Shown: one piece after another, positions 3,109-7,738 of the stretch | Layout of the letters: each line of letters begins with the position of its first letter | Position numbering within the stretch: position 1 is the first letter of the stretch | Source: a virus | Lineage: Duplodnaviria; Heunggongvirae; Uroviricota; Caudoviricetes | DNA length: 7,738 bases | Virus record (IMG/VR): IMGVR_UViG_2802429219_000018 | Strand: one strand, 5' to 3' | Made by a program: the position numbers and the translations under genes | The notes under the pieces: generated by a model | What the model was told of the DNA's origin: nothing | Database searches by the model: none | The model's input: the letters and a program-made list of their open reading frames with translations, nothing else

Positions 3109-3469
3109 GGTTCACCCCCCCCTGAATGACCTGATAACCGCAACTGGTCAGCAATTCGATAAATTCCGGCAGTGTGCCGAAACAGCAATCATCACGCAGC
3201 CGTTCGCGGGATACCTCGACGCCGTTTTCGTAGTGACTCACCATGCGTCCGGTAAAATGCAGATCATCATCGTGATGGCACGTTAACGGCTTAATCAGTC
3301 GCGCACGTTCCGCCAGTTCCAGCAATGCTTCAACGCTTCCGGCAATTGCACCATCCGGCAGGTGGTAATTACGCACTATGCGCCCGTTCTCCACATTGAC
3401 CAGCAACTGCCCGGTAAATTTCTCGTCAAACTGAATGCTGTTAAGGTCAGAAATTGACAGGTTATGCAT
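3101..3469 (-). CDS. Hypothetical protein (122 aa) with a tandem duplication of the FTG...ENG...ExxxEL domain
   Basis: ATG at 3469 with AGGAGG 7 nt upstream; the start overlaps the stop of the upstream 67-aa ORF (ATGCATAA, 3469-3462). Repeat A is EKFTGQLLVNVENGRIV...VEALLELAERA; repeat B is LHFTGRMVSHYENGVEV...LPEFIELLTSCG. Confidence 0.6.
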   Translation of the reverse strand: MHNLSISDLNSIQFDEKFTGQLLVNVENGRIVRNYHLPDGAIAGSVEALLELAERARLIKPLTCHHDDDLHFTGRMVSHYENGVEVSRERLRDDCCFGTLPEFIELLTSCGYQVIQGGVNHG

Positions 3470-3665
3470 GGTGCACCTCCTGGCGAATACGGGCAGCGAA
3501 TACCATCACGCAGCCATCAGGAGATTGCTGACGCGCTTCCTGTTCGCTGATGGCCTCGATGTGAATTACGCGCGGTTGTGCCGTACTCAGGGCGATAAAA
3601 CGCCAGATATATTTATTCAGGTTGTGCGAGTCCCGCCCTTGCGGGTGTGTGGTATGATTTCTCAT
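3462..3665 (-). CDS. Hypothetical small protein (67 aa), first gene of the replication operon
   Basis: Internal ATG at 3665 (in frame with the 3462..4457 ORF of the track) preceded by GAGG 5 nt upstream. Protein-like composition from this ATG onward, whereas the upstream part of the long ORF translates the operator repeats and the antisense of the + strand gene. Stop overlaps the next start. Confidence 0.45.
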   Translation of the reverse strand: MRNHTTHPQGRDSHNLNKYIWRFIALSTAQPRVIHIEAISEQEARQQSPDGCVMVFAARIRQEVHHA

Positions 3666-3756
3666 AGCTACCTCGATACTGTTGCTATCGTTGGTGGTTA
3701 GAAGCCCGGTTAGTGTTAGCGCACTGCCGGGTTTCGTCGTTTTTATGAATCGATCA

Positions 3757-3860
3757 TTGTGAGATACATAGTCATCACAATGTGAGATATACATTATATT
3801 GTGGTGATATACATTGCAAGTGTTTTTATATCTCACTTTTGTGTATAGTGATATACACAT
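3757..3860. promoter_or_regulatory. Operator-like repeat array in a divergent promoter region
   Basis: Direct copies of GTGA(G)ATA(TA)CA at 3759-3770, 3782-3795, 3804-3815 and 3848-3860, spaced about 22 bp apart, plus an inverted copy ATATCTCAC at 3828-3836. Inverted pair CATTGTGA (3755-3762) / TCACAATG (3774-3781). Candidate minus-strand promoter: -35 TTGCAA (3819..3814), 15-nt spacer, perfect -10 TATAAT (3798..3793). The array lies between the divergent starts at 3665 (minus) and 3880 (plus). Confidence 0.5.
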
Positions 3861-3879
3861 AACTAATTGGTGATTAACT

Positions 3880-4182
3880 ATGTCTGTATACAAAAATGCA
3901 AAATCGCAAATGACAACGATCAGGGTTCCCCACGATGTTATGGAGGGTATGGAATCCGTAAAACTGGACGGCGAAAGCAACGCCGGATTCATAGTAACCG
4001 CCATGCGTGGTGAGATCGCCCGCCGCCAGGCAGAAGGAAGAGGAGAAAATCCCCTGGTTTCTTCGCTCGATGCACTGGCGCAGGTGGAAAAAATCGGAGT
4101 CAAAGCAGCCGAGGAGATCGGGCAGCTCGTCACCGTCGCGCGTGAAGAACTCCAGCGCCGCAAGGCCAAAGAACAGGAGTAG
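3880..4182 (+). CDS. Small putative DNA-binding regulator, ribbon-helix-helix-like N-terminus (CopG/Arc/RelB-DinJ-like pattern) with a charged helical C-terminus
   Basis: ATG at 3880 with GGTGA 6 nt upstream. The N-terminal segment TTIRVPHDVMEGMESVKLDGESNAGFIVTAMRGEIARRQ fits a strand-helix-helix pattern. Composition is protein-like, whereas the overlapping minus-strand frame is Ser/Thr/Cys-rich. Only + strand gene in the window. Fold call is by eye. Confidence 0.5.
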   Translation: MSVYKNAKSQMTTIRVPHDVMEGMESVKLDGESNAGFIVTAMRGEIARRQAEGRGENPLVSSLDALAQVEKIGVKAAEEIGQLVTVAREELQRRKAKEQE

Positions 4183-4403
4183 TTGATCAGCACCGGGCAA
4201 CCAGAAAAAATCGTATCAGTCGCGCTACCAGCAAAATTTTTTGCTTTCCGGACAGCGTGGCCAACGGCATTTTGCAGCAAAATATTCTGCATTTCTGGCG
4301 TGCTGTAGTAACGGTGATCAGCGCCTTCACATTGAACGAACTTGTCGCTAAAATTCACCCATATAGCAAACATCGCGGTGCTACAGGTAATTCGTTCACA
4401 AAG

Positions 4404-4435
4404 GCGCTCCGGCAACGGGGCGCTTTCTCTTTTTG
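4404..4435 (+). terminator. Rho-independent terminator, + strand orientation
   Basis: Stem GCGCTCCG (4404-4411), GCAA tetraloop (4412-4415), stem CGGGGCGC (4416-4423): 8 bp with one G-U pair, followed by TTTCTCTTTTT (4424-4434). It lies between the convergent 3880-4182 (+) and 4450-5250 (-) genes. The reverse strand has only a weak U-tract (CUUUGUG). Confidence 0.6.
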
Positions 4436-4449
4436 TAACGGTCAGAGCG

Positions 4450-5250
4450 TTACACATGGCTGTTTTCCTCCATGCGACGGGCTAACCAACGCTGCGAAAG
4501 ACGAATTAATTCAGCTTTCCGCTGGTGGTAGTCCTGGCCTAACTCAATCAGCGTGATATTGCTCTGCTCAAGGTAAGAAAGGTGCTCAAGCTGCAATGTG
4601 CTCATGTGGTCGCGTGGTTCGCCTGTGATGTCGTTCGCCTGCGCCCACTGTTTTGCAGTCATGCCACCCAGCACGATACGCGCCAGCATGTTCGCTTCCG
4701 TGGTGTAGTGGTGCTGGAGTGTGTTTTTACCCAGTTCAGCCCGGTACGCCTCCAGCGCGGCACACATTGGCTTAAAGTAGCTGGCAACTGTGATACGGGC
4801 TTTCAGTTCCCGGCGTAACGCTGCGGAACGCACTGGCGCTACCTTGTGTAGCTCCTCCTCGCATTTGATGAAGTACTGACGAACGGCGCGGCCCTGTTCG
4901 GTGCGTTCGACCATCGCCAGTTCTTTCGCCATGTTGATAGTGCTCAGGTAGTCGTGCTCTATACGTTGGCGAGATTTTGCGCTCACCGGATTGGGGGAGG
5001 TCAAATTTTCTACGAATTCAAAATCCACGCCCTTTTTAAATCCGTACTCATCAATGCGTCCTTTAATCCAGGTTGTGAAATCACGGCCTACCCCGAGCGC
5101 CTTATGCAACGCTCTGGCGCTAACAATATTGGTTTCACGCCCGCCAATAACGCCGGAAATAACCGGGATAATTTCGCCAAAATTTTGCAGATTCTGGTTT
5201 TCAGGCCGAACGAAGCCCTGCCCCTGTACGGGCGTTTTTGGAAATTTCAT
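4450..5250 (-). CDS. Phage antirepressor-like protein, AntA/AntB (Bro-N-like) N-terminal domain
   Basis: ATG at 5250 with AGGAG 5 nt upstream. The N-terminal region ARALHKALGVGRDFTTWIKGRIDEYGFKKGVDFEF...DYLSTINMAKELAMVERTEQGRAVRQYFIKCEEEL matches the characteristic AntA-domain pattern (L-H..L.V...F..WI..RI..YGF..G.DF ... Y.LT.DMAKEL.MVER...G...R.YFI.CE) as I recall it. C-terminal half unassigned. Confidence 0.7.
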   Translation of the reverse strand: MKFPKTPVQGQGFVRPENQNLQNFGEIIPVISGVIGGRETNIVSARALHKALGVGRDFTTWIKGRIDEYGFKKGVDFEFVENLTSPNPVSAKSRQRIEHDYLSTINMAKELAMVERTEQGRAVRQYFIKCEEELHKVAPVRSAALRRELKARITVASYFKPMCAALEAYRAELGKNTLQHHYTTEANMLARIVLGGMTAKQWAQANDITGEPRDHMSTLQLEHLSYLEQSNITLIELGQDYHQRKAELIRLSQRWLARRMEENSHV

Positions 5251-5327: not shown

Positions 5328-5525
5328 TCAGGTAGCTGTTCCGCGTGATTCCGCAATACGCTGATTAATCCACTCGTCAATTTCACTCTCAACGAAAGCA
5401 ATCGCTCGCGAGCCAATTTTTACAGGTTTAGGAAAACGCCCTTGGGCAATGAGTTTATAGATCCATGCCCTGCCATAGCCTGTACGGCGCATGGTTTCTG
5501 GCATACGAATTAAAGATTGTGACAT
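5328..5525 (-). CDS. alpA: AlpA-family phage regulatory protein (excisionase-like helix-turn-helix)
   Basis: The segment IRMPETMRRTGYGRAWIYKLIAQGRFPKPVKIGSRAIAFVESEIDEWINQR matches the AlpA family signature. I chose the start at ATG 5525 (GGGAGA 8 nt upstream, giving 65 aa); the track ORF extends to a GTG at 5594, which lacks an SD and lies inside an operator palindrome. Confidence 0.85.
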   Translation of the reverse strand: MSQSLIRMPETMRRTGYGRAWIYKLIAQGRFPKPVKIGSRAIAFVESEIDEWINQRIAESRGTAT

Positions 5526-5590
5526 GATAATCGTCTCCCGTTGTTTATTGATGCCTACGGGAGACATTGAAGCAGGTAAGACATTGGATA

Positions 5591-5630
5591 TCACCGCAAT
5601 TGCGGTGAATGATACCGCAATTGCGGTATA
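5591..5630. promoter_or_regulatory. Two perfect 18-bp palindromic operator-like sites upstream of alpA
   Basis: TCACCGCAATTGCGGTGA (5591-5608) and ATACCGCAATTGCGGTAT (5612-5629), sharing the 14-bp perfect palindrome ACCGCAATTGCGGT; centres 21 bp apart. They lie between the stop of the 251-aa gene (5640) and the alpA start. No U-tract follows either site, so they are not intrinsic terminators. Confidence 0.55.
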
Positions 5631-5639
5631 GGACTACAA

Positions 5640-6395
5640 CTACGATTTAATTGATTTATTGGCTTCAGCAAACTTTGCTTCCAGCGTTCTTGAACTCATC
5701 CCCGGCTTACCTTCAAAATGTCCCAATAAATTACTAATAATAGAGCTTTGATTTTCGAATACAGATTGCTTAATACCAGCAGGTGAACGCCCTAACATTA
5801 GAAAAAGCAACCCTCCAATAATGTTTAAATATGTTGTTTCAGAACGTTGGTCAATGTTTTGCACGGAGTTATCAACCATTCGTCGTAGTGAATCACGTTC
5901 CCCTTGTAATTCGGAAATTTCATTTTTCTGCTGTTGGAAAGTCTTCATAGCATTATCTAAGCGAATATTAAGACGTTTGTTTTCAGCCTGAAGAGTTTGA
6001 TATGCCTCGACTGTAATTCCAGCATGTAACTGCTGCTCAACAGCATCAAAAAGGAAAGCTGGTTTTTGGTTGGGATAGTTTTTTGACATCCATGATTTCA
6101 GATCGGAATGGCGGACGGTTAAACGGTGCTTAGCAACCTGTTCTCCAGGTTGAACAGTTTTACCATCACGGCCATAAGGAATTTCACAATTATGGATTGC
6201 ATCTAAAATTTTCTCAGCATTAACACGCAAGCAAGGCCATTGAGGGAACATTCCAACGCTAGGTAAAACTCCATCTCCCACTCGCTCCAATATTAAAACT
6301 TCATGAGCAATTAAATTACACCAACGTAGCGCCGCTTCAATTGGAGTGTAATATGCCTTTTCAAGAGAACTACAGCTTTTTGAATTGTAAGTCAC
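5640..6395 (-). CDS. Hypothetical protein (251 aa) in the integrase-alpA cargo slot; predicted N-terminal globular domain, coiled coil and hydrophobic helix
   Basis: GTG start at 6395 with GAGG 9 nt upstream; TAG stop 5642-5640. Hand GC counts on four 60-nt blocks (5701-5760, 5821-5880, 6001-6060, 6241-6300) give about 33-43 percent, against about 47-60 percent in int and ant blocks. Heptad-like segment QTLQAENKRLNIRLDNAMKTFQQQKNEISELQGERDSLRRMVDN followed by hydrophobic TTYLNIIGGLLFLMLG. No family recognised. Confidence 0.7.
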   Translation of the reverse strand: MTYNSKSCSSLEKAYYTPIEAALRWCNLIAHEVLILERVGDGVLPSVGMFPQWPCLRVNAEKILDAIHNCEIPYGRDGKTVQPGEQVAKHRLTVRHSDLKSWMSKNYPNQKPAFLFDAVEQQLHAGITVEAYQTLQAENKRLNIRLDNAMKTFQQQKNEISELQGERDSLRRMVDNSVQNIDQRSETTYLNIIGGLLFLMLGRSPAGIKQSVFENQSSIISNLLGHFEGKPGMSSRTLEAKFAEANKSIKS

Positions 6396-6523
6396 TCTGT
6401 GCTACCTCGCACCCTCTGTAAAAGTGGCTGTGCCAGCCCGCAGAGGTGTACGGGTTTTCAGGAGCGACCCTAGACACAGCCTTTTCTTAATCGCTCAAAG
6501 TCTACTACTGTATACTCAACCAG

Positions 6524-7738
6524 TCACCCGCATTTTCCGAACTCACCATGCACCACATTTCCGCCATGCTCGAGCGAATCCATATAATCGGCGTACCACT
6601 GAAGCATTTCCCGCCGTCCATCCAGATATTGCGCATGGTTGTATGTGCCACGAATTGAGTTTTTATCGACGTGTGCGAGCTGCGTCTCTATCCATGCGGT
6701 GTTATAGCCCTGCTCATGCAAAATGGTGCTCATGGTGTGCCGGAATCCATGACCAGTAACCTTTCCGTTATAGCCGATGCGTTTAAATACTTGGTTTATG
6801 CTAGCCTCGCTCATTGTTTTCCTTGGATCATTACGGCCGGGAAACATAAGCGGATAATTGCCAGTTAATTCTTTAATCTGCCCAATAAGAGAAAGAGCCT
6901 GCTTAGACAAAGGCACCACATGAGGGCGACGCATTTTCATCCGTGAAGCAGGTATCTCCCAGATAGCCTTGTTGAGATCGATTTCATCCCATAATGCACC
7001 GCGCAGTTCGCCAGTTCGCAAACCAGTGATAATCAGTAGACGAGCCGCCATAACAACCAATGCACTTCCTGAGTAACTGGACAATGCCTTGAAAAAATCA
7101 GGCAATTCTTTGGCTGTGAGGAAAGGATAATGATTAGATTCATGGCCTTGCATCGCGCTAGTAAGATCTGGGGCAGGGTTATACTCTGCGCGACCAGTGA
7201 CTATTGCATAGCGGAAAACTTCCCCACACCGCTGCCTCACTTTTTTGGCTTTTTCTGTAGCACCGCGCCCCTCGATGCGTCGCAGCACATTCAGAAGTTC
7301 AAGTGGTTTGATTTCGGCGATTGGTTTTTTGCCAATGTAAGGGAACACATCTTTGTTGAAGGCTTCGAGGATGTCTGAAGCATAACCAGCAGACCATTTT
7401 TTTAATTTGCTGCTGTGCCACTCAAGGGCAATATCTTTGAAGGTGTTGTTTAACTGCGTTTCCCGGGCAATCTTTTCCTCTCGTTTCGCTTCCATCGGAT
7501 CGATACCCCCAGCGATACCCCTTTTAGCTTCTTCACGTTTTGCACGAGCATCAGCCAAGGTAACTTCAGGATACACACCTAGTGCTAACAGCTTCTCTTT
7601 ACCAGCTACACGATACTTGAAGCGCCAATATTTTCCTCCACTAGGTTTTACCAAGAGATACAGACCACCACCATCAGCCAGCTTGTAAGCCTTCTCTTTT
7701 GGCTTGGCAGTGTCTATTTGACGGGCATTGAGTTTCAC
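6524..7738 (-). CDS. int: Site-specific tyrosine integrase, P4-type (N-terminal arm-binding domain plus catalytic domain)
   Basis: The N-terminus KLNARQIDTAKPKEKAYKLADGGGLYLLVKPSGGKYWRFKYRVAGKEK is the typical P4-family integrase arm-binding region. C-terminal catalytic signature HGFRHT...LAH...RGTYNHAQY (H-x-x-R, catalytic Tyr). The ORF starts with GTG at the very last base of the window, so the true start may be at or just beyond the edge. Confidence 0.9.
   Translation of the reverse strand: MKLNARQIDTAKPKEKAYKLADGGGLYLLVKPSGGKYWRFKYRVAGKEKLLALGVYPEVTLADARAKREEAKRGIAGGIDPMEAKREEKIARETQLNNTFKDIALEWHSSKLKKWSAGYASDILEAFNKDVFPYIGKKPIAEIKPLELLNVLRRIEGRGATEKAKKVRQRCGEVFRYAIVTGRAEYNPAPDLTSAMQGHESNHYPFLTAKELPDFFKALSSYSGSALVVMAARLLIITGLRTGELRGALWDEIDLNKAIWEIPASRMKMRRPHVVPLSKQALSLIGQIKELTGNYPLMFPGRNDPRKTMSEASINQVFKRIGYNGKVTGHGFRHTMSTILHEQGYNTAWIETQLAHVDKNSIRGTYNHAQYLDGRREMLQWYADYMDSLEHGGNVVHGEFGKCG

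Follow-up and report, generated by a model that had tools for sequence, protein, structure and literature searches.

The best explanation of the twin palindromes that lie ahead of alpA in the window (the whole stretch of DNA analysed, 7,738 nucleotides in length) is that they form the operator of a BisR-type switch acting on alpA, and the finding, as far as sequence comparison can tell, is real and functional. More precisely, the palindromes probably constitute the operator of a BisR-family regulator that is encoded just upstream and that would switch alpA on. The evidence consists of the anatomy of the sequence, homology, the conservation of the site architecture, the co-variation of operator classes with a protein domain, and a promoter-like signal.

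As the preliminary description had it, the region contains two perfect 18-bp palindromes with a common 14-bp core (ACCGCAATTGCGGT), which starts at positions 5593 and 5614. The proximal palindrome, nearer to alpA (TCACCGCAATTGCGGTGA), occupies positions 5591..5608 and the distal one (ATACCGCAATTGCGGTAT) positions 5612..5629, neither being assigned to a strand. The interval initially given, 5591-5630, is correct at its start and one base too long at its end, the last base being 5629. The centres, at 5599/5600 and 5620/5621, are indeed 21 bp apart, and neither palindrome extends beyond 18 bp, A5590/A5609 and G5611/A5630 being unpaired. The distal palindrome lies 10 nt past the stop codon of a 251-aa ORF (5640-6395, minus strand), while the pair ends 65 nt ahead of the alpA ATG (5525); the sites are thus placed between the ORF stop and alpA, that is, upstream of alpA as first reported.

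No other perfect palindrome of at least 12 bp is present in the window besides this pair, nor is there any further copy of the 14-bp core in the window with up to 3 mismatches. The island-wide search for copies that the preliminary description had proposed returned only these 2 in each of two whole-island 18-kb E. coli loci (up to 2 mismatches). Concerning chance, a single long palindrome is no great rarity in simulated sequence: a perfect palindrome of at least 18 bp occurred in 107 of 3000 simulated windows (first-order Markov), and any two palindromes of at least 12 bp within 40 bp in 62 of 3000. For a given 14-mer, we calculate an expectation of roughly 1e-7 for an exact repeat within 40 bp, and the palindrome pair is therefore not a chance event. 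A third, half-operator at 3798-3816 was considered and rejected as within chance (4 matches vs. 1.98 expected, 31 of 200 shuffles reaching 4); no promoter common to 3798-3816 and the operator region was found in the alignment.

The relevant genes (int, the bisR-like gene, alpA and the downstream set) are all on the minus strand. A P4-type integrase gene is listed at 7738-6524 in the gene table. It is followed by the bisR-like gene (5640..6395, minus strand), whose 251-aa product is called ORF251 hereafter, and by alpA (5328..5525, minus strand; 65 aa, ATG at 5525; PF05930, E 1.1e-19), the predicted regulated gene of the operator pair. A Shine-Dalgarno sequence, GGGAGA, precedes alpA at 5534-5539 (minus strand), and RefSeq annotates the identical 198-bp alpA CDS (WP_004027535.1). 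Downstream of alpA come antA (AntA-type), an icd-like remnant, a DUF4222 gene, a DUF927 primase gene and then GAGACAAC iterons. The latter, both direct and inverted, are located at 216-257, 324-344 and 392-450 of the window, just downstream of the primase gene, and their region is probably the replication origin of the island.

In complete E. coli genomes, the island adjoins tRNA-Thr (thrW, beside proA) or tRNA-Gly, with PerC-like and ProQ/FinO genes farther on. The layout of Gram-negative phage-inducible chromosomal islands (PICIs), i.e. int at a tRNA, alpA, a DUF927 primase and iterons, is present, and no phage structural genes are annotated in the three loci L001-L003. The alpA-upstream region with the palindromes was found in 8 of 5426 genomes. 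In two of these eight, SCU-104 and N921, one base of the proximal palindrome is altered (GGTGA to GGAGA, window-equivalent position 5606; L001 10330-10480 for E. coli SCU-104). The SCU-104 island copy, the sole one of the two inspected, has an antA with an internal stop and a partial icd, both pseudogenes; together with the substitution, this is consistent with a decaying island copy.

An Rfam int-alpA RNA motif (RF02996) was detected at 6412..6480 (minus strand), with 49.8 bits vs. a gathering score of 35.8. It is situated within the 128 bp that separate int from the bisR-like gene and has a three-way structure ending in a U-run, with AGGG just before the ORF start. The motif is also present in locus L002. 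It could be an upstream input or a leader of the regulator gene.

As for the regulator gene, the preliminary description had treated it as cargo. This view did not hold: relatives of the gene adjoin the sites in distant loci, and it is therefore a conserved partner of the sites, i.e. a conserved BisR-family regulator that travels with them. Homologues of ORF251 number more than 700, with a length that hardly varies (about 252 aa); none of them carries a Pfam domain, and searches of Pfam, PHROGs, NCBIfam and PADLOC gave nothing useful for the family. No homologue was found by tblastn in 50,697 deposited phage records. Many members are named "protein kinase" or "ATP-binding protein" in RefSeq; since no search found a kinase or ATP-binding domain in the family, the "protein kinase" name looks like an annotation artefact.

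The BisR counterpart was assigned by synteny in L240, an ICEclc-type locus of Pseudomonas, and the sequence compared was its protein P0136, not the BisR of ICEclc B13 itself (CAE92957.1). ORF251 shares 43% identity with P0136 over the full length (E 3e-73), a value at the bottom of the 43-100% range reported for BisR homologues. The gene order in L240 is a 251-aa bisR-like gene, alpA, parA, a 69-aa gene, a 528-aa gene, DUF2857 and SSB, with topoisomerase genes beyond, and it matches the described bisR-to-bisC order of the ICEclc left end. The 528-aa protein, for which no Pfam match is on record, is read by us as ParB-like from its sequence; DUF2857 is the Pfam domain reported for BisC in the ICEclc literature. 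Right after the bisR-like stop of L240 there are twin palindromes, ATTGCACTGCAAC and ATTGCAGTGCAAT, 20 bp apart.

BisR of ICEclc (Pseudomonas knackmussii B13), likewise a 251-aa protein with no Pfam domain, was presented by Carraro et al. in 2020 as the first representative of a new family of regulators (PMC7423338). It is a very potent activator of PalpA, a promoter that is silent without it; its ectopic expression switches PalpA on, its deletion abolishes transfer, it acts on PalpA only, and bisR itself is controlled by the LysR-type activator TciR (PMC7423338). No binding site or DNA-binding domain of BisR was found described in the ICEclc literature searched. In the window, ORF251 and alpA are co-directional on the minus strand, with the AlpA-family gene directly downstream of the regulator gene, and by homology and position ORF251 is taken to be a BisR-family regulator of alpA. 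The parA-shi-bisD-bisC (DUF2857) feedback module is absent downstream of alpA in the window; therefore the island is not an ICEclc-type integrative and conjugative element (ICE), only the BisR/PalpA node being in common. The single target of the operator, with two copies only in the whole island, parallels the action of BisR on PalpA alone.

The AF2 model of ORF251 (pLDDT 82) comprises a conserved N-domain (about residues 14-110), a single long helix (119-201) and a compact C-terminal three-helix domain (182-251). The N-domain is the most conserved portion of the family. The C-terminal domain of about 70 aa, whose coding region lies at 5643..5852 (minus strand), again gave three helices when modelled alone (AF2 pLDDT 95), and it stands at the extreme C-terminus in all of 465 protein clusters with lengths of 71-470 aa. 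Its profile had no match among PDB sequences or in Pfam, and its fold had no significant relative among solved structures.

The distribution of the site architecture was analysed with a pattern scan (CCGCAATTGCGG-N5-15-CCGCAATTGCGG) on one genome per species. Twin CCGCAATTGCGG sites were found in 19 species of several phyla, including Pseudomonas, Paraburkholderia, Methylococcaceae, Limnobacter, Thiobacillus, Lysobacterales, Candidatus Tenderia and others, as well as a few metagenome bins from outside the Proteobacteria. The sequences flanking and separating the sites are unrelated, and the spacing is mostly 21 bp. An AlpA homologue is present on one side of the sites in 13 of 20 loci (ORF clustering), and in 12 of 20 the other side has a protein with at least the C-terminal domain, whose gene stops 1-21 nt from the sites; integrases occur beyond the regulator side. 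The product of 3880-4182 (YlcI/YnfO family), put forward earlier as a candidate binder, is not favoured and is outside the recurring module in distant loci, as judged from an uncounted inspection of gene tables and ORF lists.

Some of the scan matches were discordant with the module: L010, L012, L020 and L023 are high-GC contigs, the match in L013 lies between IS copies, and L018 is a tandem array. The latter, at about 6150-6530 of a Verrucomicrobiales MAG locus, is a long array of 21-bp units, each with CCGCA(A/G)TTGCGG. It has the dyad and the 21-bp period of the operator pair but is multi-copy, and no BisR- or AlpA-like ORF was found within 2.5 kb by profile searches, or in the ORF list.

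A further 96 loci encoding ORF251 homologues were fetched, bringing about 100 related loci into evidence. A stringent twin-palindrome detector was positive in 37 of 70 non-redundant homologue loci, compared with 3 of 2100 shuffled controls. Although spacings of 18-24 bp were allowed, the detected pairs are spaced by 21 bp in 32 loci and by 20 bp in five, with none other, and this agrees with the earlier statement that the sites are on one helical face. The pairs lie within a few nucleotides of the regulator stop codon. About 20 more loci have visibly degenerate pairs, and no recognisable twin sites were found in the family members L217, L221, L222 and L232. In 64 of 85 loci, an ORF resembling AlpA or an excisionase comes after the sites; the remainder are mostly truncated contigs. 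As to viral contigs, a scan with the single 14-mer gave at least 120 matches; of the 80 matches listed, 78 are isolated single copies in unrelated contigs, and among those listed the pair occurs only in L032 and L059, which belong to the island family of the window. In the metagenomic loci L191, L193, L196 and L197, an IS3-type transposase ORF starts 22 nt past the bisR-like stop, i.e. at the operator/alpA position, an apparent IS insertion that would have removed the target of the switch.

A promoter-like signal was found at a fixed distance downstream of the sites. In the window, a -35-like hexamer GTGATA (5589..5594, minus strand) overlaps the outer edge of the proximal operator by 4 bp, and a -10-like hexamer TTCAAT (5566..5571, minus strand) follows after a 17-bp spacer. 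In a profile anchored on the centre of the alpA-proximal site, built from 25 non-redundant loci of different operator classes, a -35-like xTGAyx is conserved at +6..+11 from the centre and a -10 pattern at +29..+34 (T29 in 13/25, A/T30, A32 in 18/25 and T34 in 19/25), with an information content near zero from +12 to +28. TTCAAT stands at the identical offset in the Pseudomonas loci L159 and L240, and the window hexamer does not have the usual A at position 2. This -35/-10 pair supports the initial suggestion that the sites are placed to control transcription into alpA. The alpA start site is predicted near 5559, about 7 nt past the -10 hexamer, which would put the centre of the proximal site near -41.5 and that of the distal site near -62.5, both typical activator positions (class II and class I, respectively).

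As regards binding, oligomeric state and sign of regulation, the following arrangement may be proposed. The regulator would dimerise through its long central helix, and the dimer would set its two C-terminal domains on the two half-sites of one palindrome, so that two dimers would fill the two sites, two helical turns apart. With the sites centred at about -41.5 and -62.5 of a weak sigma-70-type promoter (-35 GTGATA, 17 bp, -10 TTCAAT), the bound regulator would turn on alpA and with it, alpA being the master switch, the excision and replication of this integrase/alpA/primase island. Such a role would match that of BisR at PalpA in ICEclc. The cooperative binding by a dimeric helix-turn-helix regulator suggested at the outset stands in part: the sites are best read as operators of a dimeric regulator, and from its sequence pattern the C-terminal domain may be helix-turn-helix-like.

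The opposite sign of regulation would have the BisR-like protein keep alpA off from the same sites, by occlusion of the -35 hexamer and/or a block of read-through, until a signal, e.g. a helper-phage protein acting at the N-domain, releases it. The 4-bp overlap between the proximal site and the -35-like hexamer would suit repression. So would the fact that the regulator gene is co-directional with alpA with no U-tract terminator between them, such that the insulation of alpA from read-through needs explaining and something must stop it. Transcripts that run on from bisR into alpA-parA are found in ICEclc, beside a separate promoter just upstream of alpA (PMC2892462). In addition, alpA of related Gram-negative islands is silent until the helper phage is induced (PMC6092414, PMC11773190). 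Against repression, ICEclc BisR is genetically an activator (PMC7423338), promoters that depend on an activator typically show such centres (predicted at -41.5/-62.5), a poor -35 and an imperfect -10, and the N-domain, being the most conserved, is unlike fast-evolving anti-repressor targets. Repression is considered less likely than activation because of the ICEclc genetics (PMC7423338) and of this predicted geometry; we regard it as rather unlikely, and the same low probability is given to its corollary, an Stl-like master repressor for the satellite family.

Returning to the BisR-type operator that we favour, the palindrome sequences fall into discrete classes among the related loci. The window sites belong to class A (CCGCAAnTGCGG), which is conserved in distant taxa. 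Other classes have the patterns ACCCYAnnTRGGGT, GGCAnnTGCC and TACCG-N6-CGGTA, or ATTGCAnTGCAAT, CCGCATGCGG, CCGAATTCGG, GTGCAATTGCAC, CTAATTAG and TGTGAAnTCACA. Which protein reads the sites was approached through the co-variation of these classes with the neighbouring proteins. In L006, L008, L011, L014, L015, L017 and L022, the protein next to the sites has only the C-terminal domain in common with ORF251, and the operator CCGCAATTGCGG is unchanged. Between L174 and L228, the AlpA proteins are 95% identical and the N-domains 94% identical; the C-terminal domains are unrelated, and the operators differ. The same swap pattern is seen in the pairs L172/L224 and L176/L215. In L158, L207, L230 and L233, an extra ORF is found between the regulator gene and alpA; the twin sites follow this extra ORF and directly precede alpA, and in L230 and L233 its C-terminus visibly resembles the end of the C-terminal domain.

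Single-linkage domain clustering proved too coarse, and pairwise identities and recombinant pairs were used instead. The AUC for association with the operator is 0.725 for the C-terminal domain vs. 0.61 for AlpA, both measures being inflated by co-inheritance; because of this inflation, the argument rests mainly on the recombinant pairs. In these comparisons, the palindrome sequence changes with the C-terminal domain, not with the N-domain or AlpA, and the C-terminal domain of the upstream protein is the proposed DNA reader, its coding region (5643..5852) corresponding to the putative DNA-binding module that the operator class follows. R236 (codon 5688-5690, minus strand, within the coding region of this domain) is the best class-discriminating column for the two largest operator classes, with Arg accompanying CCGC sites and Ser/Thr accompanying CCCY sites. 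It follows a G-x-S turn, where the last helix begins, and is a candidate specificity residue. The coding region of the DNA-binding domain and the operator, being physically adjacent, would be exchanged together between elements as a specificity cassette.

The same data bear on AlpA, which had been put forward as a possible binder and which would then autoregulate its own promoter. AlpA autoregulation is documented, positive in EcCICFT073 and negative in ICEclc (PMC6092414, PMC11773190, PMC7423338), and the frequent AlpA-like gene after the sites (64 of 85 loci, see above) would fit it. However, identical operators adjoin AlpA proteins without detectable similarity (124 locus pairs have an equal operator class and undetectable AlpA similarity), and about 95% identical AlpA proteins adjoin different operators. 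AlpA type is thus decoupled from operator sequence, and binding by AlpA is judged very unlikely.

It is even harder to credit that the palindromes act only at the RNA level, a 14-bp inter-copy hairpin on the alpA-sense transcript terminating, pausing or stabilising the 3' end of the upstream mRNA. The fold is predicted at -28.4 kcal/mol (z = -6.3), and it is positioned right after a stop codon. However, the predicted hairpin is followed by GAUAUCCAAUG, which is no U tract as an intrinsic terminator would have, and a terminator scan found no site at 5591-5629. Such a stem would require neither self-palindromic copies nor a fixed 21-bp spacing, the discrete sequence classes that follow a protein domain would be left unexplained, and the two copies in direct register seen in several loci (L152, L176, L183, L184) would pair with central mismatches. 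A secondary RNA role of the palindromes is possible.

Lambda-type CI/Cro operators are 17 bp long, with TATCACCG half-sites and one central base pair between them. The half-site of the window resembles such operators, TATCACCGCAA being identical to the left half of lambda OR3. Identity with a lambda operator was nevertheless rejected, since the matching half-sites stand 5 bp too far apart and the site occurs in bacteria far from lambdoid hosts. Binding by a helper-phage or host regulator, e.g. a lambdoid repressor-like protein, as the preliminary description had also envisaged, is highly improbable: helper-dependent alpA induction is known in Gram-negative PICIs (PMC6092414, PMC11773190), but besides the wider half-site spacing the operator is also found in Pseudomonas, Paraburkholderia, Methylococcaceae and other distant taxa, which have neither hosts nor phages in common, and the operator classes co-vary with the C-terminal domain of the element-encoded upstream protein.

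Compared with known systems, the closest likeness of the BisR-type switch is to BisR-PalpA of ICEclc, in which a Pfam-less 251-aa regulator gene is directly upstream of, and co-directional with, alpA. In the ICEclc-type L240, the twin palindromes after the bisR-like stop are likewise followed by the -35/-10 arrangement including TTCAAT, although their sequence class differs from that of the window. The elements also differ: ICEclc is a 100-kb ICE, whereas the palindromes of the window belong to a small E. coli island, located at tRNA-Thr or tRNA-Gly, with a P4-type integrase, alpA, antA, a DUF927 primase and iterons and without parA-shi-bisDC. TciR controls bisR in ICEclc; here, int and the int-alpA RNA motif, which is absent from L240, are directly upstream.

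Gram-negative PICIs such as EcCICFT073 and EcCIMP1 have int, alpA, primase/replication genes and ori iterons in common with the island. In these PICIs, induction consists in the transcription of alpA, which acts as the master activator, and EcCIMP1 is mobilised by phage Kapi1 (PMC6092414, PMC11773190). EcCIMP1 (L004) is further alike in its integration at thrW next to proA and in the PerC-like and ProQ/FinO genes downstream. It was nevertheless rejected as a model for the window island: the 428-bp int-alpA gap of this thrW relative contains neither a bisR-like gene (ORF251) nor twin palindromes nor an int-alpA RNA.

Tandem dyad sites two helical turns apart are known from lambda CI at OR1-OR2/PRM and from CRP at -41.5/-61.5. 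As in these systems, the dyad sites of the window share a face of the DNA, the one nearer the promoter adjoins or overlaps the -35, and cooperative dimer pairs would be expected. The differences are that ORF251 is an unrelated protein, with a long coiled-coil-like helix and a C-terminal three-helix domain, not an N-terminal HTH, that there are two sites instead of three, and that the operator begins 10 nt past the stop of a regulator gene that is upstream and co-directional. SaPI Stl resembles the proposed switch in that an element-encoded regulator gates island induction and could be the entry point of a helper signal. There is no similarity in sequence or architecture, Stl is a divergently transcribed repressor, and BisR-type proteins are activators where tested.

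It is already known that BisR activates PalpA in ICEclc. What appears to be new, within the literature searched, is the operator, the assignment of binding to the C-terminal domain, the domain/operator co-exchange and the occurrence of the node in satellite-like islands of E. coli. BisR sets off the transfer programme in a family of ICEs that is very widespread, and the window and its relatives provide a concrete, testable putative operator, with two dyads 21 bp apart near -41.5/-62.5, together with a candidate reading domain, R236 as candidate specificity residue and evidence of joint domain/operator swaps. The same putative switch is found in small E. coli and Klebsiella islands built like phage satellites. 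The orthogonal protein/operator pairs could, moreover, be of use as parts for synthetic circuits.

More tentatively, and at less than even probability, the C-terminal domain could be a previously undescribed DNA-binding fold which, with the abutting operator pair, would form an exchangeable specificity cassette of at least 12 cognate classes, shuffled among ICEs and satellite-like islands and giving each a private alpA on-switch that avoids cross-talk. On this reading, the BisR-type switch of the E. coli satellites would close the gap between infection by a helper phage and the induction of alpA, with the int-alpA RNA motif as its possible upstream input.

Finally, a few minor observations concern the region farther downstream. 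About five copies of a motif of about 10 nt, GTGA(G)ATAYA, are present in both orientations at 3755-3875 (plus strand) of the window, in the divergent region from the icd-like remnant to the YlcI/YnfO gene (3880-4182), and they form a candidate operator array for another island regulator. A 331-aa ORF at 3462-4457 is probably spurious. In the icd-like region, a sub-threshold Rfam match to the SymR antitoxin RNA was obtained at 3666-3738 (plus strand; 32.9 bits vs. a gathering score of 61, E 0.003), and the corresponding EcCIMP1 region has C4 antisense RNA and isrK matches (L004 16600-16827). Taken together, these matches suggest a P4-type immunity RNA region that has decayed in the window.
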